A stretch of 26,111 nt of DNA from Planctomycetota bacterium (GTDB lineage Bacteria; Planctomycetota; GCA-002687715; DRQF01). A program made the position numbers and the translations under genes. Position 1 is the stretch's first letter. Every line of letters starts with the position of its first letter. The DNA is taken from the NCBI GenBank assembly GCA_027001995.1, contig JALTLO010000027.1, positions 1-26,111 on the forward strand, given 5' to 3'. The notes under the pieces are model-generated. The model was not told where the DNA came from. It did not search any database and saw only the letters and a program-made list of their open reading frames with translations. This document shows, piece after piece, positions 1,672 to 25,390 of this stretch.

Positions 1672-1891
1672 GGGCAAGCCGAAAGGGCTCGTGCTGCAAG
1701 AGCTCACAGGTTAGCGGACTCTTAGCACTCCAAGTTGAATACTGCGTCAGCAAGGTGGAAAACAGTGCAATCTATGGCTAAACAACCTCCGCCAAATTTT
1801 TCCGAATAGGACGAGGATGTCTTGCCCTATTTCGGAGCAATGCGATACCAGGGACCTCTTGATCACAGCAAAAATTTGGCGGGAAGAGGGC

Positions 1892-1939
1892 AAAATAAAA
1901 AAGGCGCCCCGAGGTTGGTTCTGCCAACAACGAGGCGCC
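1892..1939 (-). terminator. Intrinsic terminator-like hairpin, minus strand
   Basis: Minus strand reads GGCGCCTCG-TT-GTTGG-CAGAA-CCAAC-CT-CGGGGCGCC followed by TTTTTTATTTT. Stems of 9 bp (one G-U) and 5 bp. Confidence 0.65.
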
Positions 1940-2765
1940 AAGACTGCCAAGTTTCTCTTGATTCCCCTGAGAGAAACCGGCGTACCGATGGAGCCGGAGT
2001 GAGGGTCGGACCTGGTCATTCGACCTCCGGCTCTAGTTCTAAGCACGAGCCACTCCAGGCCCTTCGCACGATCAGCGTTACTGAGAGGAACTTCTCAATG
2101 AGAAAGACCTCACTCGCTACATCAACGCAAAACGGAGACCAAGAACCAGAAAAATGCCAAAGCTAAGGCCCAACCCCTTTGGATTCTCAAGACGACAATT
2201 CGAAGCGCATGGATGCGACGGACGCCGCGACCATAAATGCCTCGTAGAACGAGACTAAAGACAAAACAAGAAGGCAAATAAACAACCCCAAGTTGTCCTC
2301 GGGGTGGCCGGACAAACAGAGAGCAGCCTGACTCAAAGGGGGCAAGACGGTCAAACCGCGACAGAAGATGTCCGGGTTCCGGACACAGTGTACCGACTCA
2401 TGGCCTTGTCGATTCCTTCAAAAGCGCAGCCAGCTCGACAACGGATGAAACCGGAGAAGAACAAGTCTTCTCGAAGCAAACATAGGCGACCGATGAAATG
2501 GAATCTGAATACGCGGTGGCAAAGTAGGGCTTCTCCTGTGAGGCTGGATCCCACCATGAAACCTTCTTGTAGGTAAATGAGAATCACTTCGCGACATCGA
2601 ATAGAGCGCGACACTGGACATCTGATTTGGGACCAACAATAGTAATCACTAACGGTTCACCGGCGCATTCTGGGGATGTCCCTATTTCCGTTGAAATGAG
2701 ATGACATCGGTGGTTCCGGGTAACCTGGAGTTGAATGACAACCAGAAACCCAAGGAGGAACCACC

Positions 2766-2930
2766 GTGTCAAAGAAGAAGTACCGTAAGAAGACGACGAG
2801 GTCCATCCAAATTAGGAACGTTGACGAGTTCCGTGCCAGTCACCGAAGCCCTGTCGGCGCAAACCGAAAAGCCGAGTCGGCCTATCTCCGTCCGCTGACG
2901 TTCGCCTGGCCGCAAATTGACGTCGGCTGA
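2766..2930 (+). CDS. Small basic hypothetical protein, 54 aa (not in ORF track)
   Basis: Strong SD AAGGAGG at 2752-2758, 7 nt before GTG. MSKKKYRKKTTRSIQIRNVDEFRASHRSPVGANRKAESAYLRPLTFAWPQIDVG*. Confidence 0.5.
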   Translation: MSKKKYRKKTTRSIQIRNVDEFRASHRSPVGANRKAESAYLRPLTFAWPQIDVG

Positions 2931-2975
2931 CTTTTTGCACGCTACGGCCACTCATGTGACCACGAAAACGATCGA

Positions 2976-3278
2976 TTATGGCCAGTCTTGATAGATTGCG
3001 CAAACAATCTCCCCTATTCTTTTCTTCTGTTTATCGAGAACTACTGCTACGGCCTGGCCTCCTCCAATTTTATTCATCTCTTTGTATTGAACGGTAATGT
3101 TGGCCGAACTCGCAGTCACTGGGCTCACTTGCGAAAGCCGAGATCCGTGTCGATCAAGGAGAAAGCAAGAATCGGCCATTGGGAATGCCCCGGTTGAAAA
3201 TTTGCAATCCCCATCCCTAGTTGCAACCACCATGACAATATCAGTAGTCACATTTCTGTCGGATTCGCTTTGTATCAT
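2976..3278 (-). CDS. Hypothetical protein (~100 aa)
   Basis: Protein-like composition (NITVQYKEMNKIGGGQAVAVVLDKQKKRIGEIVCAIYQDWP). Fits without overlap between the convergent 54-aa ORF and the divergent 3580 gene. Start is ATG 3278 or TTG 3326. Confidence 0.45.
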   Translation of the reverse strand: MIQSESDRNVTTDIVMVVATRDGDCKFSTGAFPMADSCFLLDRHGSRLSQVSPVTASSANITVQYKEMNKIGGGQAVAVVLDKQKKRIGEIVCAIYQDWP

Positions 3279-3579
3279 GACAAGGCCGCGTGCGGGCAAA
3301 GCTAGCCCCGGGCTTTGGAATTCCAAGTGAATCGGGGGGCGTCAAGCTCCGGGCCCAATTGCACTCGAAGCCGACACGGCAATTGCCAAAAGGAAACAAT
3401 CTCCGTACGAAACCCCTTCTCCAAAAGAGGCACGCCTTTGCCACCGACCGCGTTATTCGTCTTCAATTTTCCGGCCAAGTCGGCTCATCGCGATACCCGG
3501 CGCAAAAGGCGAATCCGGCGAGTCAGAATCGGGGTTTTTTTTGAGGAACAAGGACAAGAAAAGAAGGTATCATTGACCC

Positions 3580-4635
3580 ATGAAACGCTACATCACACTC
3601 GTCTCCTCCCTCACTTTGGCCATCGCGTCCTTAGTGGCCATGGGCTCACACCAAAAAGAACTCAAAACCGGCCGAGACAACCCGGTGGAGTTAGGGACCG
3701 TTTCTTGGCAAAGAGATCTGAATAAGGGGATCGCCCGGGCCAAGAAAACGGGTCGGGACATTTTCCTTTTGTTTCAAGAAGTGCCTGGCTGAAAGGGCTG
3801 CAAAGACTTCGGCACTCAAGTTTTGAGTGACCCACAAATCGTCGATGCCATCGAAGGCCATTACGTTCCTGTTTGCATCTACAACAACATCAAGGGAAAA
3901 GATGCTCAAGTACTTTCCTACTTCAAGGAGGCTACCTGGAATTATCCTGTCACCCGAATTGTCGACTTGAATCGCAAAGATGTTGTGGCGAGAAGCAGCA
4001 ATTGGCGCAATGGCCGAGGAGTCGTGAAGCAACTCATCTCTGCCATGAAAGCCCGCAACAAAACCCTCCCCGGCTACTTAGAACTCATGGCGCTCAATAA
4101 CAAGAAGAATGGCTACGAAACGGCTGTCTTTGGCATGTCATGATATTGGGTGGGTGAGGCCGAGTTCGGTCTCAAGAAAGGAATCATTTCAACCCGCCCA
4201 GGTTGGTTAGGTAGCGTCGAAGTCGTGGAGGTAAAATTCGATCCTGGCGTCACTTCCTTTGAAGACTTGGCGAGACATGCAGCGAAGAAACGCTGCGCTC
4301 AACCCATCTTCGCCTGCAATGACAAACAAATGAAAACTGCCAAGGTGTTCACTTCTCAAGTGAAACCCAGAGGCCAGAAGAGCATTCGTTGGGTAAAAGA
4401 CAACAAGTACTACATGAGCCAAGGTTCTCTGAAGTACTTACCCCTCACGAAAACGCAGGCAACCCGAATCAACGCCGGTCTCACTCAAGCCAGCTATTGG
4501 CTTTCTCCCAGCCAGAGAAGAATGCTCAAAACAATCAAAGCTCACCCCAGAGCGGGATGGCCATCAGCCATTGGCAAGCCCTTTCTGGAATCCTGGGCAG
4601 CAGCAAGAAAAATCGCAAACAAGCTGAAGAGCTGA
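3580..4635 (+). CDS. Putative exported double selenoprotein: thioredoxin-like VPGUxxC domain plus MsrA-like domain (Sec71, Sec188), 351 aa
   Basis: Three track ORFs share one frame and the only internal stops are TGA 3790-3792 and TGA 4141-4143. Read-through gives LFQEVPG-U-KGCKDFGTQVLSDP and TAVFGMS-U-YWVGEAEFG...EVVEVKFDPGVTSFEDL (compare MsrA FxxGCFWGxE...EvVxVxfDPxxiSyxeL). N-terminus is signal-peptide-like. Hairpins follow both TGAs. Confidence 0.88.
3793..3833 (+). promoter_or_regulatory. Candidate bacterial SECIS element 1
   Basis: Two alternative stems after the TGA. One is AAGACUU/AAGUUUU (3803-3809/3818-3824), loop CGGCACUC starting 17 nt after the UGA. The other is CACUCA/UGAGUG (3813-3818/3824-3829), loop AGUUU. 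Both have G at loop position 2. Confidence 0.55.
4144..4200 (+). promoter_or_regulatory. Candidate bacterial SECIS element 2
   Basis: UGAGGCCG(4155-4162)-AGUU-CGGUCUCA(4167-4174): 8-bp stem, loop 19 nt after the UGA, G at loop position 2. A lower stem UGGGUGGG(4147-4154)/CCCGCCCA(4193-4200) is also possible. Confidence 0.7.
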
Positions 4636-4674
4636 GCCACGAAGACAACGTGGACGAAGGAGGGTCACCAAAGT

Positions 4675-5925
4675 TCATTCTGACTTGGAGTTGGCCAGAT
4701 CAAATCGGTCCAGGGCTTTCTGCCCTGGCCACCAGAATGATCGCCGCCAGATCATGACCCCAGCCTTGGTAGCAGCCAATTGGTCGGATCGGCTTGGCAC
4801 CCGGTCAAAAGGAAATGGCCAGCCAGAAGAACCATAGTGGCACCAAACCCCCACTTGGTTGCCACCTCCAATTCCACTGACGCATCTTTGAAGAAATGTA
4901 CCGCGACTCAAACCCCCTTTGCCACTGTCTCCCCGCAAGACGAAATCGCAATGGGTGTCAATAAATGGAGCGGTGATTCTGGGAGACCCAAATGGTTGGT
5001 CAGAGCCATTCAGATAGATGATCTTGTTTGGACCCAGTTGACGGCGGAGTGCTCGGATGAACGATCGCTGCTCAAGAAAATTACCCCTCAAACCGTCAAC
5101 ATAAAAGCCATCCAAGTCATAGAGCGAACGGAGTCGTTGCAACTCCTCTAACATGTTGTGACTCAGAGAATAGCGGGGAGAAACATAGGGGAGAAAACGC
5201 ATGCCATGGTTGTGCACATCCTCGATCGTTCGCCGAAACTGCTCTTCGTTCAAAGGCTCATGAAAGGCCGAGTGCCAAGGGTTCGGACGAAATCGGTAGC
5301 GGCTGAAACGAGGTCGAGCCTCGGGGAATTCCTCCTGCCAAAAATAGCCGTGCAAAGCAAAAATTTGAGCCTGTTGGCTAACAGCAGCAATGAGATCAGG
5401 ATGAGGAAGTTCTTCCCCGGATCGGGGCCTTCCCTCATGAGCAATTTGAACCCCTGCCAAAGTGGGATTGGGTAAACGCGGGGGAAAGACATGAAAGAAA
5501 AGAGACGCGTCTTGATCAATGGTGAATCGAGTAGGAGTGTCGAAACGATTCGACTGGCCTTTGAGCCGATAGACCCCACAGCCAAAGCCCTCACCTCGGT
5601 AATCAGCGGCCTGATCATTCGCCTCGAAAGAGCGCAGAGTAAAGAGCAAGGTCATCTTGGCAGACCAGGGCTCCTCTGAGGCGAATTCCACAAAACCATC
5701 CTCACAAATTTTGATGGCCTGAAGCCCACGCTTGAGCATCACTTCGGCGATGGATTCCTGGGCTATGTGCCAAGGTCCTGAGCCCTCCAGTTGCCATGTG
5801 ACCACTTCCGACCTTAAGGGCATCTTAGTCGTCACGGTCATGGAGTTCCCCGTGCAAGAAAAAGTCGCGCCAGTTGTGTCCACCACAACCATCTCACCCT
5901 CGCGCCGAATCTCATCAATCCTCAT
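4675..5925 (-). CDS. Putative glycoside-hydrolase-like (TIM-barrel) protein
   Basis: FRRTIEDVHNHGMRFLPY...YDLDGFYVDG pattern typical of GH TIM barrels, with a beta-rich N-terminus. ATG 5925 overlaps the upstream stop by 11 nt. Family uncertain. Confidence 0.55.
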   Translation of the reverse strand: MRIDEIRREGEMVVVDTTGATFSCTGNSMTVTTKMPLRSEVVTWQLEGSGPWHIAQESIAEVMLKRGLQAIKICEDGFVEFASEEPWSAKMTLLFTLRSFEANDQAADYRGEGFGCGVYRLKGQSNRFDTPTRFTIDQDASLFFHVFPPRLPNPTLAGVQIAHEGRPRSGEELPHPDLIAAVSQQAQIFALHGYFWQEEFPEARPRFSRYRFRPNPWHSAFHEPLNEEQFRRTIEDVHNHGMRFLPYVSPRYSLSHNMLEELQRLRSLYDLDGFYVDGLRGNFLEQRSFIRALRRQLGPNKIIYLNGSDQPFGSPRITAPFIDTHCDFVLRGDSGKGGLSRGTFLQRCVSGIGGGNQVGVWCHYGSSGWPFPFDRVPSRSDQLAATKAGVMIWRRSFWWPGQKALDRFDLANSKSE

Positions 5926-6904
5926 GGGAAGAAGAGACCTTTCGGCTAAGTGCGCCCAGTTGAGGAACAACCCAGGGCGACATCACTTCAGTGGCACTCA
6001 CCAAAGACTCCCGCAAGCGCTCACCTTTCCCTAATTGCGTGAAGACAATTTTGGGCTCATCTTCTTTCTGGCCCCACAGGGCATGGGCTCGATGAGCCAG
6101 ATCGAGAATCTTGATAGAAGTATGTTCCGTCGGCACGATGGTCCCTTTGAGCTGATAAACCAAAGTCGCCTCAATGGCATCGCAGGCATATGAGCTGGAG
6201 ATAAACAGCCGCTCCGCCCCGCGGTCTGTTACGGTGATAGGATTGCCTAACTTCACTTGCCGTCGAAAGATCTGGGCAACGCTCCCATCACTTCCCATCA
6301 CATTCGGCAAGCGTACAATACTCAAGACGACATTATCCTCCGCAAGGCTCTTCATCTCCTCTAACTTATTCTCAGCTTCTGCCTTGGATCGGCCCATGAC
6401 ACATTTTGAATTTACAGCTTTATCTGTGGACAGAAAAACGAATTGCTTAGCCGCGTTCCTGACAGCTTGAGAATAGAGATGCAGAGTGTGATCTAAGTTA
6501 TTGCGCTGGCATTCCCCCTCATTCGCCTCCATCAAGCCCACATGCTTATGGGCCGCGCAGTGGACAACGGACGTGAAAGGTTGCCTTTCAAAGGCATCGC
6601 CAACAGCATGGTAGTCACCAAGGTTGAGAACCAAGTAGCTGGGCTCATTCTTGATTCCTAACTCAGAACACGATTGCTGCAATTGGAAGAGCCCCTTTTC
6701 GCTCTTATCCAAGGCAGCCACTTGATGGCCAGCCTGAAGAAATCGTAGGACCATTTCCCGGCCGAGACTCCCGGCTGCCCCGGTGACCAAAATAGTTTGG
6801 GGGCGTATGGCCTCCAAGTCGATGGAGACCAAGTCCCGGCCCAATAGGTAGGCAGTTTCCTCGGGGGTGAGGGGCACGTCAAAGCCTGGGTCCTCAAGTT
6901 TCAT
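5915..6904 (-). CDS. Nucleotide-sugar 4,6-dehydratase, CapD/PglF-like SDR domain without membrane N-terminus
   Basis: ILVTGAAGSLG, HCAAHKHV, STDKAV, MGRSK, VRLPNVMGSDGSV, GERLRESL. Confidence 0.88.
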   Translation of the reverse strand: MKLEDPGFDVPLTPEETAYLLGRDLVSIDLEAIRPQTILVTGAAGSLGREMVLRFLQAGHQVAALDKSEKGLFQLQQSCSELGIKNEPSYLVLNLGDYHAVGDAFERQPFTSVVHCAAHKHVGLMEANEGECQRNNLDHTLHLYSQAVRNAAKQFVFLSTDKAVNSKCVMGRSKAEAENKLEEMKSLAEDNVVLSIVRLPNVMGSDGSVAQIFRRQVKLGNPITVTDRGAERLFISSSYACDAIEATLVYQLKGTIVPTEHTSIKILDLAHRAHALWGQKEDEPKIVFTQLGKGERLRESLVSATEVMSPWVVPQLGALSRKVSSSHED

Positions 6905-7502
6905 AACGCTTCTTTCCCAAGAGAACAGTCAGGGTTTGAAGGAGCAAGATAAAGTCACTTAAGAAAGTGGCGTTCTTCAAGTAAGCCGCTGAGAGCTCGA
7001 GTTTTTGCGGTTGAATTTCTTTCATGTAATATCCCTCTGGATCGGATTGGCCAAGCAATCGAGACTCCTCATCCAGGAATGCCAAAGTAGCGGGATCCGT
7101 CAACCCAGGCCGCACTGATAGAACGTATTCTTGCAAAGGGTGAGCCAGATTTATCAGCCCTACAGACTCTGGCCTTGGGCCCACCAAGCTCATTTGACCC
7201 CAGGCCACATGAATAAGTTGAGGCAACTCGTCCAGTCTATGCCTTCTCAAGAATCGCCCCAATGATGTTTGCCGCGAATCATCACCAGCGGTGACTTGAG
7301 GCCCCGAACCTGACGTCATGGTTTGAAACTTGAAGAGAGTGAAGATTCGCCCGCCTCTTCCCACACGCTGAGAAAAATAGAAGGGGGACTGCTGATCGCA
7401 AACAAGGATGAGCAATGAGATAAACGCCAAAAGAGGTATGAGGAGTGCCAGAGCAGTGACCGAAACCCCGAAGTCAAAGAGTCGCTTTGCCCAAGTGCTC
7501 AT
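6894..7502 (-). CDS. Sugar transferase (PglC/WcaJ-type phosphoglycosyl transferase)
   Basis: KRLFD, single hydrophobic helix, QRVGRGG, FKFQTM, RLDELPQL, MSLVGPRPE, VRPGLT. ATGA overlap with the upstream gene. Confidence 0.92.
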   Translation of the reverse strand: MSTWAKRLFDFGVSVTALALLIPLLAFISLLILVCDQQSPFYFSQRVGRGGRIFTLFKFQTMTSGSGPQVTAGDDSRQTSLGRFLRRHRLDELPQLIHVAWGQMSLVGPRPESVGLINLAHPLQEYVLSVRPGLTDPATLAFLDEESRLLGQSDPEGYYMKEIQPQKLELSAAYLKNATFLSDFILLLQTLTVLLGKKRYET

Positions 7503-8644
7503 CGGCATGTTTCCTGAACCGATGCGATGACATAGTCAACGTCAGAATCAGACATGGCTGGATAAATGGGCAGAGAAACATGAGTTCGCCAATAATGCTC
7601 GGCCACCGGAAAAGCACCGCTTCCTAATTTCAGTTTCTTTTGCGGTCCAAGGAGAAGATGAACTGGCTTAAAATGAACGGAAGTCCCAACTCCCCGAGCA
7701 AACAAGGCATCCACCAGGAAGTCTTGCGTGAGAGAAGAAGCTCCCGTCAATTCTAAGGCATAGACATGACGAGCGTGAAATCCTTCCAAGGGGATCTGGG
7801 GGGTGTCGATGGTAGGAATCTCGGCGAAGGCCTCATCGTATCGCTTACTGATTTCTTGCCGTCGCTTGGTCATAGAATCCAGGCGTTTCAATTGTTCTAA
7901 TCCAATGGCCGCAGCGATGTCAGACATATTGGCTTTCAAGCCAATCTCGGGAACATCGTAGAACCGAAAGCCCTGGCCATCCTCTCGCTGCCAAGCGTCC
8001 TTGTCGATTCCATGAAGTCGCAACCTCTTGGCCCGTTCATAGACTTCTTCGTTGGCAAGAGTAAGCAGGCCGCCCTCCCCGGTGGTGAGATTCTTGGTGG
8101 CATAGAAACTGAAAGCGCTGCCATCACCAACGGCACCCACCTTGCCAGCATCGCTCACGGTTTCAAATGCGTGTGCCCCATCATCAATGAGAAGAAGCCC
8201 ATGAGCGTCGGCAATAGCTTTGATGGCCTTCATGGGGGCCGGACAGCCCGCCAAATGAACGGGCATGATGGCCTTGGTCTTCGAGGTGATAGCGGCTTCA
8301 ATTCCTTGAGCATCCAAGTTGCCATTCACGGGGTCCACATCGACCAGTTTGACCTCGGCCCCCACGCGCCAAATGGAAGCCAAGGTCGCCACAAAAGTCA
8401 AAGGCGTGGTGATGACCTCATCCCCCGGACCAACACCCAACGACAAAAGTGCCAATTCAAGACCATCCGTGCAAGAAGACACCGACAGGGTGAAGCGGGA
8501 ACCCAAGTAAGTTGAGCAAGCCTCCTCGAAGGCAGCAACCCGAGGACCAGACGTCAACCAGCCCGACGTCATGACTTGGGCCACGGCGGCTTCTTCTTGA
8601 GGACCCAGGTTAGGCCGATGAAACGGTACTTCCCGATGCTTCAC
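7499..8644 (-). CDS. DegT/DnrJ/EryC1/StrS family PLP-dependent sugar aminotransferase
   Basis: SGWLTSGP, GPGDEVIT, IMPVHLAG, DDGAHA, FSFYATKNLTTGEGG (PLP Lys), SLPIYP. GTGA overlap with the upstream gene. Confidence 0.95.
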   Translation of the reverse strand: MKHREVPFHRPNLGPQEEAAVAQVMTSGWLTSGPRVAAFEEACSTYLGSRFTLSVSSCTDGLELALLSLGVGPGDEVITTPLTFVATLASIWRVGAEVKLVDVDPVNGNLDAQGIEAAITSKTKAIMPVHLAGCPAPMKAIKAIADAHGLLLIDDGAHAFETVSDAGKVGAVGDGSAFSFYATKNLTTGEGGLLTLANEEVYERAKRLRLHGIDKDAWQREDGQGFRFYDVPEIGLKANMSDIAAAIGLEQLKRLDSMTKRRQEISKRYDEAFAEIPTIDTPQIPLEGFHARHVYALELTGASSLTQDFLVDALFARGVGTSVHFKPVHLLLGPQKKLKLGSGAFPVAEHYWRTHVSLPIYPAMSDSDVDYVIASVQETCR

Positions 8645-10344
8645 GAGGGCTCCTTATCGATGCGGGCCATCCAATGACTTCGAAGGCAAGCGATTTTTTC
8701 GAGCCCTGACGTCAGCCAAGGAGCCCAATGAATTGTCCAACGAATAAGTGGAGGGATCAGGGTAAGGGAATTCGTAGTGATCGCATAGCGCCTTGAGCCC
8801 AGAAGATTCTTGAGGGCCGTTGGAGGAAATTTCCCCGTCTCTCCTAGGGGGCGTCGCCACTTCATGTCATGGACCAAAAGCCAACCTCCCGGCTTAAGAA
8901 CGCGCCAGGATTCTGCCAAAATCTGTCGGCGCATTTCCCCATTCTGAATGGAGGAGAAAACCAAGGAGATAACAATGCCATCGATGGTTGAGTCCTTAAG
9001 AGGAAGGGAACTCCCACAACCGTGATGGAAAGTCGCCTGTGGCAAGCGAGCTTGGGCCGCGGCGATGCGAGTCGCGGACAAGTCAACCCCTATGAGATCG
9101 TCTTCCGCCACCCCCAGACCCTCGAGAGCCATCATCCAATCTCCGCGGCCGCATCCAAGATCAATAACCTTTTGGCCTAGCCTCACATGCCCCTGCAAGA
9201 GATGTCGGCGAACCTGATCGCGCCCTCGGTCGAGGAACCCTTGAACCAAAGATGATTCTTGGGATTCACTATCCCGGCGGGCGAAAATGGCTTCAATCCG
9301 ACGAGCTTCCCCTGGAGAATGACTTCTTGCTCCCCTTCGGGAGCATAGTCCCAGCAAGAAGCCACATCCGTAAGACATGTGCAAGATCAACTGGGTCAAG
9401 AACACCAAGAAAAGCAGATGAAATGATCCTCGCCGAATGACCGAAGTCAAAGCCGAGAACAGAAGGAAGATCAAGTAGACTCCTTGACTGACCCCATGCA
9501 AGACTCCGATCCAACCACCCCCAACTGCAGCTCCCACTCCCGTGACCAAGAGCCAAAGCACGATCGCCGAAGGCAAAAAGTGGCGCACCTTCATAGCGGC
9601 AGGATGTTTTCTCAGTACCGCTGGCTTCCACAAGCCGTAGGCAAAGTATTGGCGCCACAAACCTCTTGGACTTTCCCGAGGCCGATAGTGGCTGCGGATC
9701 GTCGGATCCAAGTACACAGCCCCACCCCCCGAAAGAATCCGCATGTTGTGCTCGTCATCTTGGTTGCGAACCAGGCTCTCGTCGAAAACCCCGTAGGTGG
9801 TAAAGGTCTTTCTTGGCCAAGCCCCCAAATAGACCGTATCCACAAATTGCGCCTGGTGGCTTGAACGAAATGCCGCGCCTCCGCTGCCCCCCAGTCCCCC
9901 TGTAGCCCAGGCATAGGCCCGTCCCCAAGGTTTCTCGCTTTGAGGCTCTTGGCAACCCCCCACGCAATCAGCGGCGGATCCTTTCAAAGCCCTCAGAACG
10001 CTCTCTAAATAGTCAGGAGCGACCACCGTGTGACCATCAACCCGCACCAGGACCGGAGTCGAAGTCCCGGCGATGGCCAGATTTAAGCCGGCCGCGGCGC
10101 TCCCCTGGGAGTTCTTCAAAACTCGTACATGCAAGCCCGAAGCCTGGACTTGCCAAGCAAACCCTTCCACCAAGCGAAGGGTCTCATCCTCAGAACCTCC
10201 ATCAGCCACCACCACCTCGTATTGCTCTGGAGGCAAGGTCTGATTGGCCAAGGCCGCCAGAGTGTCCTCAATATCCCGAGCTTCGTTTCGAATCGGCAAG
10301 ACTACAGAGATGACCATCGCATTGTCAGATTCAAGGGGAACCAT
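8641..10344 (-). CDS. Fusion of GT2 glycosyltransferase (ExoA-like, with TM helices) and class I SAM-dependent methyltransferase
   Basis: N-terminal ISVVLPIRNE, DGGSED, RVDGH, NQDDEHNMR; about 3 TM segments; C-terminal VIDLGCGRG, GVDLS, LPLKDSTID, RVLKPGGWLLV. Confidence 0.88.
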   Translation of the reverse strand: MVPLESDNAMVISVVLPIRNEARDIEDTLAALANQTLPPEQYEVVVADGGSEDETLRLVEGFAWQVQASGLHVRVLKNSQGSAAAGLNLAIAGTSTPVLVRVDGHTVVAPDYLESVLRALKGSAADCVGGCQEPQSEKPWGRAYAWATGGLGGSGGAAFRSSHQAQFVDTVYLGAWPRKTFTTYGVFDESLVRNQDDEHNMRILSGGGAVYLDPTIRSHYRPRESPRGLWRQYFAYGLWKPAVLRKHPAAMKVRHFLPSAIVLWLLVTGVGAAVGGGWIGVLHGVSQGVYLIFLLFSALTSVIRRGSFHLLFLVFLTQLILHMSYGCGFLLGLCSRRGARSHSPGEARRIEAIFARRDSESQESSLVQGFLDRGRDQVRRHLLQGHVRLGQKVIDLGCGRGDWMMALEGLGVAEDDLIGVDLSATRIAAAQARLPQATFHHGCGSSLPLKDSTIDGIVISLVFSSIQNGEMRRQILAESWRVLKPGGWLLVHDMKWRRPLGETGKFPPTALKNLLGSRRYAITTNSLTLIPPLIRWTIHWAPWLTSGLEKIACLRSHWMARIDKEPS

Positions 10345-10478
10345 GGCTCAGAATAGCCCATTCCACCCCGAGAGGCACGTTTTCGGAGATAAACACAGAT
10401 TGGGACTTTGACCCACCCAGGAGGTTTTTTTACCTTTTCTTCGGAAAGTTGTCAGGAATCTCCTCGGCCAGCCCATCA

Positions 10479-11003
10479 ATGGACGACATGACGAACGCTA
10501 TGAAGACAGACATCAATAAATTCGTCCGAAAACACCAAGATAGCTTAAGGCAATACCTTCGGCTCTTGGGGTGTGCTGACGACATCCTTGATGACTTAGC
10601 CCAGGAGACCTTTCTGGTCTTCCTGCGTAAAGACCCAAGTTTGCCCAGCGATGGAGCCGCTGCCGCCTTCCTCAGGCGAACAGCCATCAATTTGTTGCGC
10701 AACTCAAGACGAATCGACGCCCGTCGAATGGCTATCCTACGCCAAGACGCCGCCGATAGGATCTGGTCTCGCTACCAGTTGGATGCTCGTCCCAGCGCCT
10801 ATGGGGACACCCTACGGGCCTGTTTGAAGGAGCTTCCTCAAAGCATGAACGACACAGTCAATCTTCACTACCGAGATGGCATGTCAGGACCCCAAGTCGC
10901 AGCAGCGAAGGGGCTCAGCGAAGCGGATGTTTGGACCACGCTCAGCCGTGCCCGCAGAAAACTTCGCAACTGCATCAACAGGAAACTGAACCATGAACTT
11001 TGA
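10479..11003 (+). CDS. ECF sigma-70 family RNA polymerase sigma factor
   Basis: Region 2 DDLAQETFL...AFLRRTAINLLRN and region 4 LRACLKELP...LHYRDGMS...VWTTLSRARRKLRNCI. Start uncertain (10449-10500). Confidence 0.92.
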   Translation: MDDMTNAMKTDINKFVRKHQDSLRQYLRLLGCADDILDDLAQETFLVFLRKDPSLPSDGAAAAFLRRTAINLLRNSRRIDARRMAILRQDAADRIWSRYQLDARPSAYGDTLRACLKELPQSMNDTVNLHYRDGMSGPQVAAAKGLSEADVWTTLSRARRKLRNCINRKLNHEL

Positions 11004-14231: not shown

Positions 14232-14626
14232 AGTGGACTTTCCGTGAAGAATCTAGGCTTGAAGATCAGGTGGTTCGATCTCTTGACTTGGGGATATTAA
14301 CGATGAATTCCACCATTAGGAAATTCTGCCGGAATTGATTTCCCAACCGCCTTGGCAACTGTAAGTTTGCTATTACAAGCATGACATTGCCATTGCTGGG
14401 ATGGTTAAAATGCGCAGAGTAGAACTCCAGACCCAGCAGCAGGACAATTGTCGCAAATGAAGATCGTATTGGACGTTGCGTTGATCCCGGACGAGAAGAC
14501 GAGGAGCCAAACCAACCCTCAGGCGCCGTCATTTCGGACTCTTTGCTGAAAATTCTGTTTTCTTGCATCCCTTTGATCATCTCAGGCCCCTACCCCGGTG
14601 TAGAGAACAAAGAAAGGATTTACGCC

Positions 14627-17467
14627 ATGACACAACCTCTGATGACCAACCCGGATGTGCTTCTGTCCCAAACTGAATGGCTGCACCATCTTGCCCGACA
14701 ATTGGTGGGCTCACGAGAAGCCCAAGAGGACCTCGTTCAAGAGACCTATCTGCAAGCTTTGTCCCAACCTAACCGAGAAATCGCCCACCCCGGCGCTTTC
14801 TTGGCAAAGGTCATGCGCCGACTGGCCGCTCGAACCACAAGTCGCGATGTCAAACGTGGAACTCTGGAGGCGCGATCCTCGAGGAATCTCAGCCATGGGT
14901 CCACTGAAGATCTTATCGAGCGTATCACGGTCCAAAGAGACTTGGTGAATGTGCTTCTTTCTATGTCGCAAGCTCAAAGAGATGTCTTGATTCTTCGGTT
15001 CTATGAGGACATGGGTCCAACAGAAATCGCTGCCCGTTTGGACATTCCCTTGGCAACAGCGAAATCAAGACAACAAAGAGGATTGGAAGTGCTGCGGGAG
15101 AAGCTAACGAACTTCTACGGCACCGACCGTGACTTCCGCTTGGCATTGGCACCTCTCGTGGCGCTTGCACACTTCGGGCCCAAAGCAGGTTCCACCACCC
15201 TATTCGGCTACGCCAGCTTTAAGGTTGCTGCCGCCTTTTTGATTGCCTTAAGTTCATGGGGCCTCTTTCAATTGCTGAGCGAAGACACTTCGGATGTTCG
15301 AGAATTGTCCAACTTGGGAGTGATCGAAGAAGAGGCTCGACCACAGATCGGGCGATCTCCAGGATACCAGCTCAAACAAAAAGAAGTCGCCCAAGTCCTG
15401 CCACAGGCGAAGAACATCATCCAAGTGCAAGATGCAGATGGCAAGTTGATCACTGATGTACCCATCGCCATCACGGCCCAAGTCCTGTCAAAGAAGACAA
15501 CGATTTGGCGAGGCAAGACAACAGGCTCCCAAGGCACGATCGACATATCTGATGGTTTGGCAGTGGTGGTCAAGGATAACCGCTGCGCCATCTACCGAGC
15601 CAGCTTTGGATTCCCCATTCTTGGGGGGCTCCAAAGCGAGATAGATCCAATCAAAGGATTAGAAGACCCGCTGGTGGCCACTCTTCCCCCCGTGGGCAAG
15701 CTCCAGATCAACCTCTTTGATCAATCGGGCAAACCATTCACCAAAGAAATCACTGTCACCTTCAATGGTCTTGCGCAGCCCGACGACTCCAGCGGTTACC
15801 TCTCATCCTACGTCGCCCAACCTTCGGAAGGCCAAGTGACTCTCCCTTATGTTGGTTTGGGCCTTCATCTCTTGGTGGAATTCACGGACCCCCATGGCAA
15901 AAGGCCAGCGCAAACGTTGAAGCTCCTAGGGCCCAAGACATCAGAGAAAGCGCTGGTTGTCTCCTTCACTGTGGCAGACGACTATCCCACCATCGAAGGA
16001 AAATTGGTCGACAAGAACGGCTCACCTGTGGCCAAAGCCACATTCCGCGCTGCCTTCGCAGACGACGAGAAAGTAGATTTCAGGGACTTCAAAGCCAGAC
16101 GCCGAATGCGTCAAGTACGTCGCCCTTTCATGATCGAAACCGATAACCGCGGCAAGTTCACCGCAACATGGCCTCGCCCGCCATCATTCCAAGGCAAGAC
16201 TGAACTCGTCATCGGGGAACACGTAGCCAGAGGCGGTGCATCCGTTGGCCGTGCAGCCCGGGTAGCTCTCCCAGCAGCCGTCAACAACACAAGCATCGAT
16301 GTGGGAACGCTCAAGCTTGACGGTGGCGGGCGTCTCATCCGTGGGCAGGTGGTGGACGTAGATGGGAAACCAATTGAGGGGGCCTACGTCACCTTAACTC
16401 CCCTCGGCAAAGGACGATCCTTGACCACAACCCGCACAACTCTATCGGGATCTTTTGCCATCGAGGGAAGTTCAGAGATCAAGAGAGCGAGCGTTCGGGT
16501 TAGGTGCCCAGGTTATGCTCGCCCAACGGGTTTGGAGTTCGACCTCGCAATCAAGAACCATCGCATTGTGCTTTTGCGTGCTGGGAGTCTCAAAGGTTCG
16601 ATCCATCTTCAATCGCCAACAGACGCTTGGGGTATGAGCATCCAAACAGCTCGCCAAACTGAAACCACATTTCGTGGCAAGACGTTTTCTCGTCGTCGCC
16701 ACAGTCGGCCTTTGACCGTTGAGGACGATGCCATTCGAAGAGATGGCTCCTTCATCATCGACAACATCGCTCCAGGCCAAGTGGATGTCGAAATCCTTGT
16801 GGGAGGTGAGGTAGTCAAGACCATCGCAAGGTTAGAGGTGAAAGCCGGCAGGGAATCCACGCCAAAAGCGCTCCAGAGCATCCAGCTCAAGAAACGTTCG
16901 CCAATCGTCTGCATTCAACTCTTGGACGACCAAGGCAAACCCATGGCCGGTCGAACAGTGGGAACAACGAAGACCCGAAAAGGAAGTCGTACAATCCAAA
17001 CCTCTAACACCACCGCCAAATTGGACGAAGATGGCAGCCTCTATCGGGCCGCACCACAGAACTCCACCAAGACCGTGGACCTAGCCATTCCTGGGTGGAA
17101 AGCTGTTTCCGTCAAGGCAATCAAACCCAAAACGGTCGTGCACTTAGAGCGAGGCCCCAAGATCGAATTCGAGTTCCCTGACTACGAGAACTTTCAGGGC
17201 GAGAACATAGTCCTCAAGCTGCAAAGAAAGCTCGGGCGACCAACCCGAGAACTCAATCCTGCGGTTCGAATCATGCATCGCTACACCACCGCCCTGGTTG
17301 ACGGCAAGGCTACACTGTTCGTCTCCGCCTATGGCGACTTCAATCTTGATGTGGAAGTGGAGAACAACAAGAATTCGAAAGTTAAGTTCACACCATCAAC
17401 GCTGATAATTGAGAAGATGGTGACCCAAGTGAAGCTCAAGAAGACCAAAGCACCTCAGAAGAAGTGA
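14627..17467 (+). CDS. ECF sigma factor fused to a TM helix and extracytoplasmic carboxypeptidase-regulatory-like beta-sandwich domains
   Basis: SD GAAAGGA before ATG 14627. EDLVQETYLQAL and RDVLILRFYEDMGPTEIAARLDIPLATAKSRQQRGL; TM segment VAAAFLIALSSWGLFQLL; repeats IEGKLVDKNGSPVAKA and IRGQVVDVDGKPIEGAYV. Confidence 0.88.
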   Translation: MTQPLMTNPDVLLSQTEWLHHLARQLVGSREAQEDLVQETYLQALSQPNREIAHPGAFLAKVMRRLAARTTSRDVKRGTLEARSSRNLSHGSTEDLIERITVQRDLVNVLLSMSQAQRDVLILRFYEDMGPTEIAARLDIPLATAKSRQQRGLEVLREKLTNFYGTDRDFRLALAPLVALAHFGPKAGSTTLFGYASFKVAAAFLIALSSWGLFQLLSEDTSDVRELSNLGVIEEEARPQIGRSPGYQLKQKEVAQVLPQAKNIIQVQDADGKLITDVPIAITAQVLSKKTTIWRGKTTGSQGTIDISDGLAVVVKDNRCAIYRASFGFPILGGLQSEIDPIKGLEDPLVATLPPVGKLQINLFDQSGKPFTKEITVTFNGLAQPDDSSGYLSSYVAQPSEGQVTLPYVGLGLHLLVEFTDPHGKRPAQTLKLLGPKTSEKALVVSFTVADDYPTIEGKLVDKNGSPVAKATFRAAFADDEKVDFRDFKARRRMRQVRRPFMIETDNRGKFTATWPRPPSFQGKTELVIGEHVARGGASVGRAARVALPAAVNNTSIDVGTLKLDGGGRLIRGQVVDVDGKPIEGAYVTLTPLGKGRSLTTTRTTLSGSFAIEGSSEIKRASVRVRCPGYARPTGLEFDLAIKNHRIVLLRAGSLKGSIHLQSPTDAWGMSIQTARQTETTFRGKTFSRRRHSRPLTVEDDAIRRDGSFIIDNIAPGQVDVEILVGGEVVKTIARLEVKAGRESTPKALQSIQLKKRSPIVCIQLLDDQGKPMAGRTVGTTKTRKGSRTIQTSNTTAKLDEDGSLYRAAPQNSTKTVDLAIPGWKAVSVKAIKPKTVVHLERGPKIEFEFPDYENFQGENIVLKLQRKLGRPTRELNPAVRIMHRYTTALVDGKATLFVSAYGDFNLDVEVENNKNSKVKFTPSTLIIEKMVTQVKLKKTKAPQKK

Positions 17468-20002: not shown

Positions 20003-20383
20003 TCAATCGTCTTGGATCACTTCAACAATCCGAACTCCATAGCGGTCTTTAACCACAACAATCTCGCCTCGAGCAATCAGCTTGTCGCCAATCACAAGAT
20101 CAATGGGTTCTCCCGCATTGCGCTCGAGATCGACGATCGACCCAGGCACCAAATCAATCACATCCGAGATCGTCTTGTGCACAATGCCAATTCTCGCTGT
20201 CATCGGCACCCTGACATCCATAACCCGACCAAGATTGTCTGGGGAAGCCCCTGGGGTGACTTGGGCAGCAGCAGCAAAGTCTTCCAGTTCAATGGGAGCG
20301 ACCTCTGCTCCTTGAGTTTCTTCACCAGTTTCGCCTTGGGATTCTGCCGTTGTGTCTTCTACATCTGCGGTATCTTGTGTCAT
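20003..20383 (-). CDS. fliN: Flagellar motor switch protein FliN
   Basis: SpoA domain NLGRVMDVRVPMTARIG...GSIVDLERNAGEPIDLVIGDKLIARGEIVVVKDRYGVRI. ATGA overlap with fliM. Confidence 0.92.
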   Translation of the reverse strand: MTQDTADVEDTTAESQGETGEETQGAEVAPIELEDFAAAAQVTPGASPDNLGRVMDVRVPMTARIGIVHKTISDVIDLVPGSIVDLERNAGEPIDLVIGDKLIARGEIVVVKDRYGVRIVEVIQDD

Positions 20384-21378
20384 CCCCCGCTCCCCTTATT
20401 GCTTTGTTGTGCAGCCTTGTCGCTTAGTTGTTTGGCGACTTTGAAGCCCATATTTTCGTCACAGCGACCAAGAGTTCCGGAGTACTTTGGCTTTCCGCCG
20501 ATCTTGAATTCGAGAAGTTGACCGGGCTTGCTATCTAAGACAATGATGTCCCCAGGGGCCAAGTTAGCCACATCCCGAAGACTGACATCAGCTTTGCCAA
20601 TCTCAACAGAACTACCTACGACCACGTCGCAAAGAACACGCTTCAAGCCTTGCCGCTGATCCTGGGCCACTTCCACCGGCTGAACCGGAATCGACGCCGA
20701 ACGCTCGATGGCCTTGGTAAGATCAGCGATGGGCAAGAGGAATTCGAAGCTCCATTCCAAGCCACCTTCGACTTTTGTTTCGAAATTTGCTGCCAAGAAT
20801 AGTTCCGTTGGTGGAAAAGCATGCATCTGCTCTTTCGAACCAATGAATTGACGCCATGCCATGGTCAGCTGGGCCACTCCAGACATGACAGATTGGTAAG
20901 CCTCGATCACGGGATTGACGACATCCCCCACCACCCGTTGCTCAATTGCAGTGAGATCTCTTTCGAGGGCTTCGCATTCGCCGGTGCCACCGACAAGTCG
21001 GTCAATGATCGACCCCGCAGTTTTCGTACCGATGGATAAGAAGGCGGGCAAGCCAAGCTCTTTCACCCCCAGTTCGATGACGCAACAGCGATCCGAAAGT
21101 CGGTCAACAACACTCCGCATGCGAACCAAGGAGAAGTCAGCAACGACACAGGACATTTGAGATCGAAGTGTTGCGCTCAGATCGCTGGCCATCCGATCTG
21201 CGACCATACGCAAACGTACACCCATAGACTGAAGAGCCTCAGGACAGAGAACGTTGGGCTGATCGACGGCAAACTCAGTCGTCGTCGACGCCAAGTCTTC
21301 TTGCACTTGCTGTCGAGAACGAAACCGTTCGAGCAGCGCGTCAATGGCCGGAATGTCTAAGAGATCACTTGAACTCAT
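20380..21378 (-). CDS. fliM: Flagellar motor switch protein FliM (divergent)
   Basis: N-terminal LLDIPAIDALL, middle IIDRLVGGTG...RDLTAIEQRVV, C-terminal SpoA LRDVANLAPGDIIVLD...GTLGR. Confidence 0.85.
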   Translation of the reverse strand: MSSSDLLDIPAIDALLERFRSRQQVQEDLASTTTEFAVDQPNVLCPEALQSMGVRLRMVADRMASDLSATLRSQMSCVVADFSLVRMRSVVDRLSDRCCVIELGVKELGLPAFLSIGTKTAGSIIDRLVGGTGECEALERDLTAIEQRVVGDVVNPVIEAYQSVMSGVAQLTMAWRQFIGSKEQMHAFPPTELFLAANFETKVEGGLEWSFEFLLPIADLTKAIERSASIPVQPVEVAQDQRQGLKRVLCDVVVGSSVEIGKADVSLRDVANLAPGDIIVLDSKPGQLLEFKIGGKPKYSGTLGRCDENMGFKVAKQLSDKAAQQSNKGSGG

Positions 21379-21423
21379 ATTCTCTTCAATGTCCCCGATA
21401 CGGAACGTTCTCCTTCTCGCTCT

Positions 21424-21451
21424 TATATCGGGCAACGAGCAGCCCTACTGA
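21424..21451 (-). promoter_or_regulatory. Candidate sigma-28 (FliA) promoter for fliM-fliN
   Basis: TCAG-N15-CCCGATAT compared with the consensus TAAA-N15-GCCGATAA; lies 46 nt upstream of the fliM ATG. Confidence 0.5.
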
Positions 21452-21685: not shown

Positions 21686-22270
21686 TCAGAGGATCTGACG
21701 GTTAACCAGCTCGCGCCGAAGAGTCTTTGCGTCACGAAAACGGACCGAAGGGATCCCGCAATTGGTTGCGGTGTCGCAGTTCACACCGTTGTCGTCAATA
21801 AAAAGCGCCCCTGCTGGCAGCACTTGGAGATAGGCAAGGAGTCGGGTGAATGCCTGTGGGTTTGGCTTCCTGAGACCCCAGTCGCAAGAAACAAAACTCC
21901 AGGGCAAGTAGCGACTCAGGCCAAGTCGCCGATCGATTTCTAGGTACCAAAGGGGGTAGTTGCTCATGATGTGCATAAAAACCCCCGCCTTTGACAACTC
22001 CACCAGCAACTCCTCCATCCCTGGCAACCAGCGATAGGCTCGAAAAGTCACGGCTTTGAAACCTTCATGGTCGAAAGACCGGCCATCAGCGAAAAAACTG
22101 TCGAGAAACTGTTGCTCTGTCCAGTGGCCCTTCTCAAATTCTGTCCAAGCCGTTGGATGCTTGGCACGCATGAGTTCTTCCAAGGACAACCCAAAGAACG
22201 CTGGCATCTCCTGATAAAACGGGTCATACACCAGGGTACTCATGACATCCACAAGAAGGACTGGTTTCAC
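21686..22270 (-). CDS. HAD-superfamily phosphatase, FMN hydrolase (plant FHY1)-like
   Basis: LLVDVMSTLVYDPFYQEMPAFFG, KHPTAWTEFEKG, SNYP, RKPNP, FIDD. GTG 22270 makes a GTGA overlap with the kinase stop. Confidence 0.85.
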   Translation of the reverse strand: MKPVLLVDVMSTLVYDPFYQEMPAFFGLSLEELMRAKHPTAWTEFEKGHWTEQQFLDSFFADGRSFDHEGFKAVTFRAYRWLPGMEELLVELSKAGVFMHIMSNYPLWYLEIDRRLGLSRYLPWSFVSCDWGLRKPNPQAFTRLLAYLQVLPAGALFIDDNGVNCDTATNCGIPSVRFRDAKTLRRELVNRQIL

Positions 22271-25152: not shown

Positions 25153-25390
25153 GACCCAAAACAGTTTAGCACTTATTGGCAATGCCTAAGCCATCACCAA
25201 GGAAACCCAACTGATTACCAATCGCCATAGTCTCAAATCGTCCAGAATCCTCTTTGACCAAACGGTTTGTCGTGTTGAATAAATATGCAAAGTCGATCGC
25301 AAAAAAGAACCCTGTCCTTGAGTAAGAGAAATGTTTAATCTCTGTCATCGCCCAAACCCAATTGCCGCCGAAAATCAGATCGTTCAAATC

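Follow-up and report, generated by a model that had tools for sequence, protein, structure and literature searches.

In the window analysed here, a stretch of 26,111 nucleotides from a Planctomycetota bacterium, positions 3580-4635 of the plus strand are almost certainly one gene, in which TGA codons 71 and 188 are internal codons and not stops, and we regard it as very nearly certain that both UGAs are decoded as selenocysteine (Sec). The product of 351 amino acids, counted with both TGAs as Sec, combines a thioredoxin-like domain, with Sec at the N-terminal position of a UxxC motif, and a predicted domain of methionine sulfoxide reductase A (MsrA) descent, with Sec at the position of the MsrA catalytic cysteine. 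The family itself, Sec-MsrA enzymes, thioredoxin-Msr fusions and double selenoproteins are all known already, and this is no new kind of system. What appears to be new is the second Sec, in a stripped-down MsrA-derived domain, which is absent from Table 1 of the 2026 catalogue PMC13188914.

Translated with TGA as Sec (U), the gene is a single open frame that places U71 (TGA at 3790-3792, the catalogued Sec) in VPG-U-KG-C and U188 (TGA at 4141-4143, the uncatalogued Sec) in FGMS-U-YWVGE, and that stops at a TGA in codon 352; all features of the gene described below lie on the plus strand. The ORF listing and this translation bear out the preliminary description, which had assigned the ORFs 3580-3792, 3823-4143 and 4150-4635 to a shared frame. 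It had also expected gene callers to break the gene into three, and so they do, since all three fragments are present in a public collection as separately called proteins. A protein search yielded 84 homologues out of 2219 candidates (193-616 amino acids), and in 84 of 84 both TGA columns contain Cys, with no Trp or variable residues at either site, as the preliminary description had anticipated for genuine Sec positions; because TGA forms get split, the database is biased towards Cys forms. The protein used in the searches and for the structural model carried one additional residue from the terminal TGA, which affects only the last position. This terminal codon was also considered as a third Sec codon and rejected, as no notable fold was found (z 0.93) and relatives stop there with TAG, TAA or TGA.

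The selA, selB, selC and selD genes that the preliminary description had named as the accompanying machinery are all present in the source genome (204 contigs, 92% complete, 2.6% contamination). The selA, selD and tRNA-Sec genes are clustered on one contig (L004, G000:C148:21658-25584) and selB lies on another (C17), with the selA, selB and selD proteins each scoring above their family cut-offs. The selD gene carries an in-frame TGA of its own, followed after 33 nt by a hairpin with nearly the same apical part as the first hairpin of the gene under study. The published model of the bacterial SECIS element asks for a loop of 3-9 nt with G in one of the first two places, a stem of 4-16 bp, a distance of 16-37 nt from the UGA and an MFE of at most -7.5 (PMC13188914). 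Folding and covariation place one SECIS-like hairpin after each internal TGA: hairpin 1 (3813-3829; 7 bp, loop GUU) 27 nt after UGA71, and hairpin 2 (4156-4173; 7-8 bp, loop AGUU) 19 nt after UGA188. Hairpin 2 agrees with the model at -11.7 kcal/mol, has a z of -4.92 against shuffles and is equalled or bettered at only 4 of 2000 control Cys codons from long ORFs of the same genome. A spacing of 19 gives the best hairpin in 16 of the 17 two-Sec genes, the median energy at this site is -11.0 kcal/mol after TGA (17 loci) versus -5.0 after Cys codons (25 loci), and across the 17 genes 94.1% of cells are paired, with 4 compensatory cells in 2 pairs. Hairpin 1 agrees with the model at a borderline energy: its apical stem alone has -5.9 kcal/mol, a value equalled by 80 of 2000 controls, and the 61-nt stretch has -14.2 with a z of -0.44. 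It is weak alone and rests on conservation, as 78.8% of cells are paired across 33 genes and 42 cells are changed on both sides, values that lie above 500 of 500 shuffles and all six slid controls, while two pair-count measures over the same 33 genes were not above shuffles. On scores for pairing and covariation, each hairpin exceeds 500 of 500 shuffles and every slid control; these controls overstate the case, since the genes are related and so not independent of one another, and each structure derives from folding the window itself. An Rfam scan of the window gave 0 matches.

These data bear on three readings in which at least one TGA is not a Sec codon. Two nonsense changes within a Cys/Cys gene, through decay to a pseudogene or an assembly error, could be argued from an assembly of 204 contigs in which the Sec genes lie on contigs other than that of the window, but the positional chance of such a pair is about 9e-5 (a crude, unweighted estimate over 152 single-base routes to a stop in the gene), in line with the earlier view that two chance nonsense mutations at both sites are very unlikely. 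The identical TGA pair, moreover, occurs in 16 other genomes, the 17 genes spanning 9 families with pairwise protein identities of 33-70%, and in 10 metagenome loci, with hairpins at fixed spacing, and we give this explanation hardly any credence. One public contig that spans the whole stretch has no difference but may be the very source of this DNA, a contig from a second study that covers TGA71 has no change listed there, and among the public contigs compared none was an independent-study contig of the same organism spanning TGA188. An alternative code, in which the organism decodes TGA as Trp or Gly, could draw on the existence of a tRNA with anticodon TCA, but this 98-nt tRNA is called SeC by ARAGORN and adjoins selA and selD, a tRNA-Trp(CCA) is also in the genome, the 9 Trp residues of the protein are all encoded by TGG and the homologues have only Cys at both sites, so that we attach next to no weight to it.

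Two recoding events reduce yield, a point in favour of a reading in which only UGA71 is efficiently decoded and UGA188 mostly terminates, the main product being the exported thioredoxin domain alone (amino acids 1-187), with the second domain rarely or never made. Thioredoxin-only members of the family are known (in G049 and G233), and the catalogue lists one Sec for the family (PMC13188914, Table 1). Against this, hairpin 2 is stronger and better conserved than hairpin 1, and the frame past UGA188 is open and conserved in 17 of 17 two-Sec genes, which makes termination at UGA188 a distinctly improbable outcome.

The preliminary description named an NCBI family of VPGUxxT proteins that would probably cover the first domain. 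The family exists (NF041383, VPGUxxT type 2) but spans both domains and not the first alone: the read-through protein scores 316.8 bits against a cut-off of 275, with residues 37-315 aligned to positions 1-286 of the 287 in the profile, whereas the three fragments scored alone reach 41-100 bits. The fusion of a thioredoxin domain with an MsrA fold is thus that of a family already known. The VPG-(U/C) motif of the family is present in the thioredoxin-like domain as VPG-U-KG-C; the 84 homologues, those bearing the NCBI name among them, have C (77) or S (7) at position +3, so that the T of VPGUxxT is not defining. Table 1 of PMC13188914 enters NF041383 as hypothetical protein OS_HP5, with motif VPGU and 1 Sec, predicted and with no experimental verification. 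Our gene matches this family over both domains and shares the VPG-U motif, but together with 16 relatives it has a second Sec in the MsrA-derived domain, and no row of that table joins a thioredoxin Sec with an MsrA-fold Sec. PMC13188914 was the only paper among the matches listed in a full-text literature search for VPGUxxT or NF041383, although NCBI records, the BSepDB or other papers may already hold the second Sec. The family terms are absent from the main text of PMC13326102, VPG and NF041383 are absent from the part of one of its supplementary files that was covered, and OS_HP5 does not appear in the main text of the source cited for it. The type 1 family (NF041382) has the N-terminal thioredoxin-like domain in common with our protein (125 bits, residues 20-163), but this score lies below its cut-off of 350, and loci that look like type 1 have an unrelated charged C-terminal region and no second Sec. 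Bacterial double selenoproteins such as NF041212, NF047649, NF045648, NF041536 and NF045694 likewise have two Sec per chain, each inserted by in-frame recoding, but none of those in Table 1 combines a thioredoxin UxxC with an MsrA-fold Sec (PMC13188914).

The N-terminus (amino acids 1-22; 3580-3645) resembles a signal peptide, with a basic start and a hydrophobic helix at residues 5-19 that the model also contains at low pLDDT, and in 40 of 47 family loci a crude window test found a hydrophobic 11-mer with a mean of at least 2.0 upstream of the domain. The protein is thus probably exported. The thioredoxin-like domain (amino acids 37-162; 3688-4065) is of a DsbD-gamma/DsbH-like kind with U71-K-G-C74 as its active site, and matches Pfam Thioredoxin_7 with an E of 1.2e-7. 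In the predicted model of the read-through protein (pLDDT 91.9, pTM 0.87), residues 40-162 adopt a thioredoxin fold that aligns to 3f9u with a VIA Z of 13.9 (rmsd 2.5, 121 residues aligned). Elsewhere among the family loci this domain is found alone or with a different C-terminal domain, so it need not serve domain 2. The genome also encodes a DsbD with all three domains (L069:490-2862, G000:C20). An in-frame TGA at L069:2530 lies within the active-site motif of its gamma domain, read as GYT-U-PNC, and is followed by a weak hairpin (-8.0 across 60 nt); the gene is probably that of a Sec-DsbD that gene callers cut. The signal peptide and the DsbD suggest an envelope reductase in which electrons would pass from DsbD to the UxxC motif and on to Sec188. 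The preliminary description had called the enzyme self-contained, which is unlikely for a protein that is probably exported and would need an envelope electron source such as DsbD.

Domain 2 (amino acids 177-325; 4108-4554) was assigned by VIA and hhalign as an MsrA-derived domain with a helical subdomain of the type found in CoMsrA, the seleno-MsrA of Clostridium (Alkaliphilus) oremlandii. Its model matches MsrA structures with Z scores of 11.4-13.6, the best being CoMsrA (PDB 4LWJ, 4U66; VIA Z 13.6 and rmsd 3.2 over 143 residues for 4u66, with model residues 177-323 aligned to 5-208), and residues 177-325 correspond to CoMsrA 5-210 with the C-terminal helical domain included. An alignment by hhalign to a profile of 8 MsrAs from relatives, 6 of Sec type with a helical domain and 2 canonical, gave 99.4% probability and an E of 1.9e-21 and also runs through the helical domain. 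Residues were mapped onto CoMsrA from this profile alignment and not from 3D residue pairs. On this mapping the MsrA catalytic residue, aromatic, Trp and Glu are present as U188, Y189, W190 and E214, the last (4219-4221) equivalent to the catalytic Glu55 of CoMsrA; C/U188, W190 and E214 are invariant, Glu and Trp occurring in 124 of 124 other rows. Three further active-site residues named for MsrA, Tyr47, Tyr90 and His137 (PMC4333827; PMC6316033), are missing. The Tyr47 loop (13-17 residues) and most of the segment before Tyr90 are deleted, which removes, with Tyr90, two oxygen ligands (E. coli Tyr82 and Tyr134). Tyr90 aligns to Cys239 (4294-4296), a candidate resolving Cys that is present at 33 of the 40 genome loci, in 38 of the 84 database homologues and in all but 3 of the 16 other two-Sec proteins. 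In the methyl pocket, the stretch D274-N-K-Y277 (4399-4410) has Asp in place of His137 and keeps Tyr140 as Tyr277; among the 16 other two-Sec proteins position 274 is D or E in 15, Y277 is kept in 15 and W209 in all 16.

The same losses of the Tyr47 loop, Tyr90 and His137 occur in Cys-only members, so Sec is no general compensation for them. Domain 2 scores 20.9 bits against the TIGR00401 (MsrA) cut-off of 108.1 and is marginal for Pfam PMSR (PF01625; 24.1 versus 23.7), covering only positions 1-32 of the 153 in that profile. The Sec-MsrA-like domain of the preliminary description is therefore right as to the MsrA fold and the Sec at the catalytic position, but the domain is not intact and keeps Glu alone of the three sulfoxide-oxygen ligands. 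On profile and model comparison domain 2 derives from a C. oremlandii-type seleno-MsrA and has been remodelled, and by its defining residues as aligned the protein is not an MsrA member. The only PF01625 match in the genome search is a separate canonical Cys MsrA with a lipoprotein-like N-terminus (L068, G000:C197:66928-67386, minus strand). A stand-alone C. oremlandii-type Sec-MsrA, with G-U-FW and the helical domain, was seen in 7 of 12 weak-match loci (L028, L029, L030, L031, L032, L035 and L036); from their sequences these genes of relatives are likely related to the one from which domain 2 descends.

A scan of the genome collection with the single protein as query returned only 2 loci, and two named genome records with relatives are both Planctomycetota, at 71% and 38% identity. 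With the NF041383 profile, 48 of 401 genomes of the phylum matched at an E of 1e-40 or better, and all 48 loci were read, with L006 removed because its protein duplicates that of L018 and L007 kept out of the count. Named by the residues at site 1 and site 2, the 40 full-length loci comprise 17 UU, 10 UC, 13 CC and 0 CU. Of the 8 loci without both sites, 6 have TGA at site 1 only and 1 has Cys at site 2 only; the last, missed by the search pattern, has on reading a TGA at site 1 and no domain 2. Across the 47 loci scored for site 1, 33 have TGA and 14 Cys. The best 80 of 538 confirmed metagenome matches comprise 67 CC, 10 UU, 3 UC and 0 CU, the CC count being inflated because one of the two seed patterns demanded Cys at site 1, which would not hide CU. 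Sec at site 2 was thus never seen without Sec at site 1 in the 40 phylum loci or the best 80 of 538 metagenome matches, a pattern to be expected if a catalytic Sec has to be recycled by a reductant that also carries Sec. A selA match is present in 17 of 17 UU, 9 of 10 UC and 11 of 13 CC genomes, the UC exception being G256, which is 84% complete; the expectation that Cys/Cys genes mark Sec-less genomes was accordingly wrong.

In a quick tree built with both sites masked from 41 loci and 29 of the 84 proteins from the database (70 rows in all), a single, modestly supported branch (SH-aLRT 80) carries 15 of the 17 UU proteins, and UU needs 2 changes versus 15.3 for shuffles. Sec188 may by this tree have a single origin, in which case the nesting of UU, UC and CC counts as few events and may reflect that one origin and no functional need. 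Trp209 (4204-4206) is present in 16 of 16 other two-Sec proteins versus 11 of 84 Cys-only database homologues and is a possible sequence signature of the two-Sec group. The Cys-only relatives include proteins of Bacteroidota and Verrucomicrobiota that bear the VPGUxxT type 2 name. We also noted a variant, L023 (G021), whose Sec-thioredoxin domain is joined straight to the C-terminal helical part without the MsrA core, and, among L025 (G049), L063 (G233) and L064-L067, Sec thioredoxin-only members and Sec members with a long charged C-terminal region, the latter probably type 1.

The gene stands alone in the window, with 1.9 kb lacking any long ORF upstream and a convergent polysaccharide cluster downstream. 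The upstream part (1672-3579) holds short ORFs only, of at most 140 amino acids, and no Rfam match; the downstream cluster (4675-10344, minus strand) encodes polysaccharide or glycosylation functions, namely a sugar epimerase, a sugar transferase, a DegT aminotransferase and a GT2-methyltransferase fusion. No promoter site was returned by a scan of 3200-4800, which also gave no plus-strand terminator, and no conserved neighbour genes were seen in 17 loci read by eye. Elsewhere the window contains two plus-strand ECF-type sigma factors (10449-11003 and 14543-17467), the second of 974 amino acids and fused to carboxypeptidase-regulatory-like repeats, a minus-strand FliM-like gene (20380-21435), accompanied by no other flagellar gene in a scan of 19 window proteins, and a minus-strand Ser/Thr kinase fused to an FGE-sulfatase domain (22267-25182).

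Two characterized systems resemble parts of the predicted protein. CoMsrA has Sec at the same catalytic position, and its Phe17/Trp18, Glu55 and Tyr140 correspond to Y189, W190, E214 and Y277, but domain 2 is without the Tyr47 loop, has Cys for Tyr90 and Asp for His137, and shares its chain with a thioredoxin-like domain and a signal peptide. CoMsrA itself lacks Cys and depends on a separate glutaredoxin for its recycling; with Sec it is 20-fold more active than with Cys (PMC4333827). Neisseria PilB, with a periplasmic thioredoxin-like N-terminus followed by MsrA and MsrB, is likewise an exported fusion of a thioredoxin-like with an Msr domain, export being predicted in our case. PilB is reduced by nDsbD (PMC6210582), and a DsbD is encoded in this genome too. 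Unlike PilB, the present protein has no MsrB, residues 37-325 being accounted for by the thioredoxin and MsrA folds with no MsrB family hit, and its domain 2 is of the reduced CoMsrA type, with Sec in both sites. In PilB the thioredoxin domain recycles MsrA between molecules, and only MsrB intramolecularly (PMC6210582).

With some reserve, we favour a cell-envelope double selenoprotein that acts like a thioredoxin-fed sulfoxide reductase. After export, DsbD would reduce the U71-C74 selenenyl-sulfide, and Sec188, assisted by Glu214, would attack an oxidised sulfur, most plausibly that of a methionine-S-sulfoxide in envelope proteins or of a related S=O compound; that the substrate is methionine-S-sulfoxide itself falls, in our estimate, a little short of an even chance. 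Cys239, which aligns to Tyr90, would then trap the resulting selenenic acid, unless U71 attacks it directly, and regeneration of the catalytic site would fall to the thioredoxin domain of the same or another molecule. With two of the three oxygen-binding residues gone, the higher reactivity of Sec may make up for their absence. A complex prediction of the two domains, made with a Cys-only homologue (P0046), scored 0.29 against a mark of 0.32, with no contacts given.

The main alternative, which we consider less likely, is that both UGAs encode Sec but that domain 2 has given up sulfoxide reduction, its MsrA fold now serving U188 and C239 as a redox pair for disulfide or sulfenic-acid exchange or peroxidase activity, or that the two active sites work independently. 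The absence, throughout the family, of the His and of two oxygen ligands out of three, the Cys that most genome loci have at the Tyr90 position, the canonical and probably exported MsrA already in the genome and the modularity of the thioredoxin domain all point this way. The invariance of the catalytic Glu and Trp and the retention of the helical domain, which holds the CoMsrA site together, fit retained sulfoxide chemistry instead, and Cys239 is not invariant. We think it unlikely that a widespread clade of envelope enzymes has turned the MsrA fold to a new selenium catalysis, in which Sec188, with a resolving Cys where the catalytic Tyr would be, works on some substrate that is not methionine sulfoxide and is recycled by diselenide transfer from its own UxxC domain, with a Sec-DsbD as the supply of the latter. 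If this were true, there would be a three-selenium electron chain in a bacterial envelope, and natural CC, UC and UU versions of one enzyme could be compared.

For annotation, a conserved gene is broken into three fragments in public protein sets, and the catalogue entry in Table 1 of PMC13188914 is without a Sec site carried by 17 of 40 full-length members in the phylum. Once domain 2 is traced to the seleno-MsrA of C. oremlandii and its kept and lost residues are mapped, the function of the family becomes testable. The natural series of CC, UC and UU forms, without CU, lends itself to studying what favours the use of selenium and whether a catalytic Sec must be paired with a reductant that also carries Sec.
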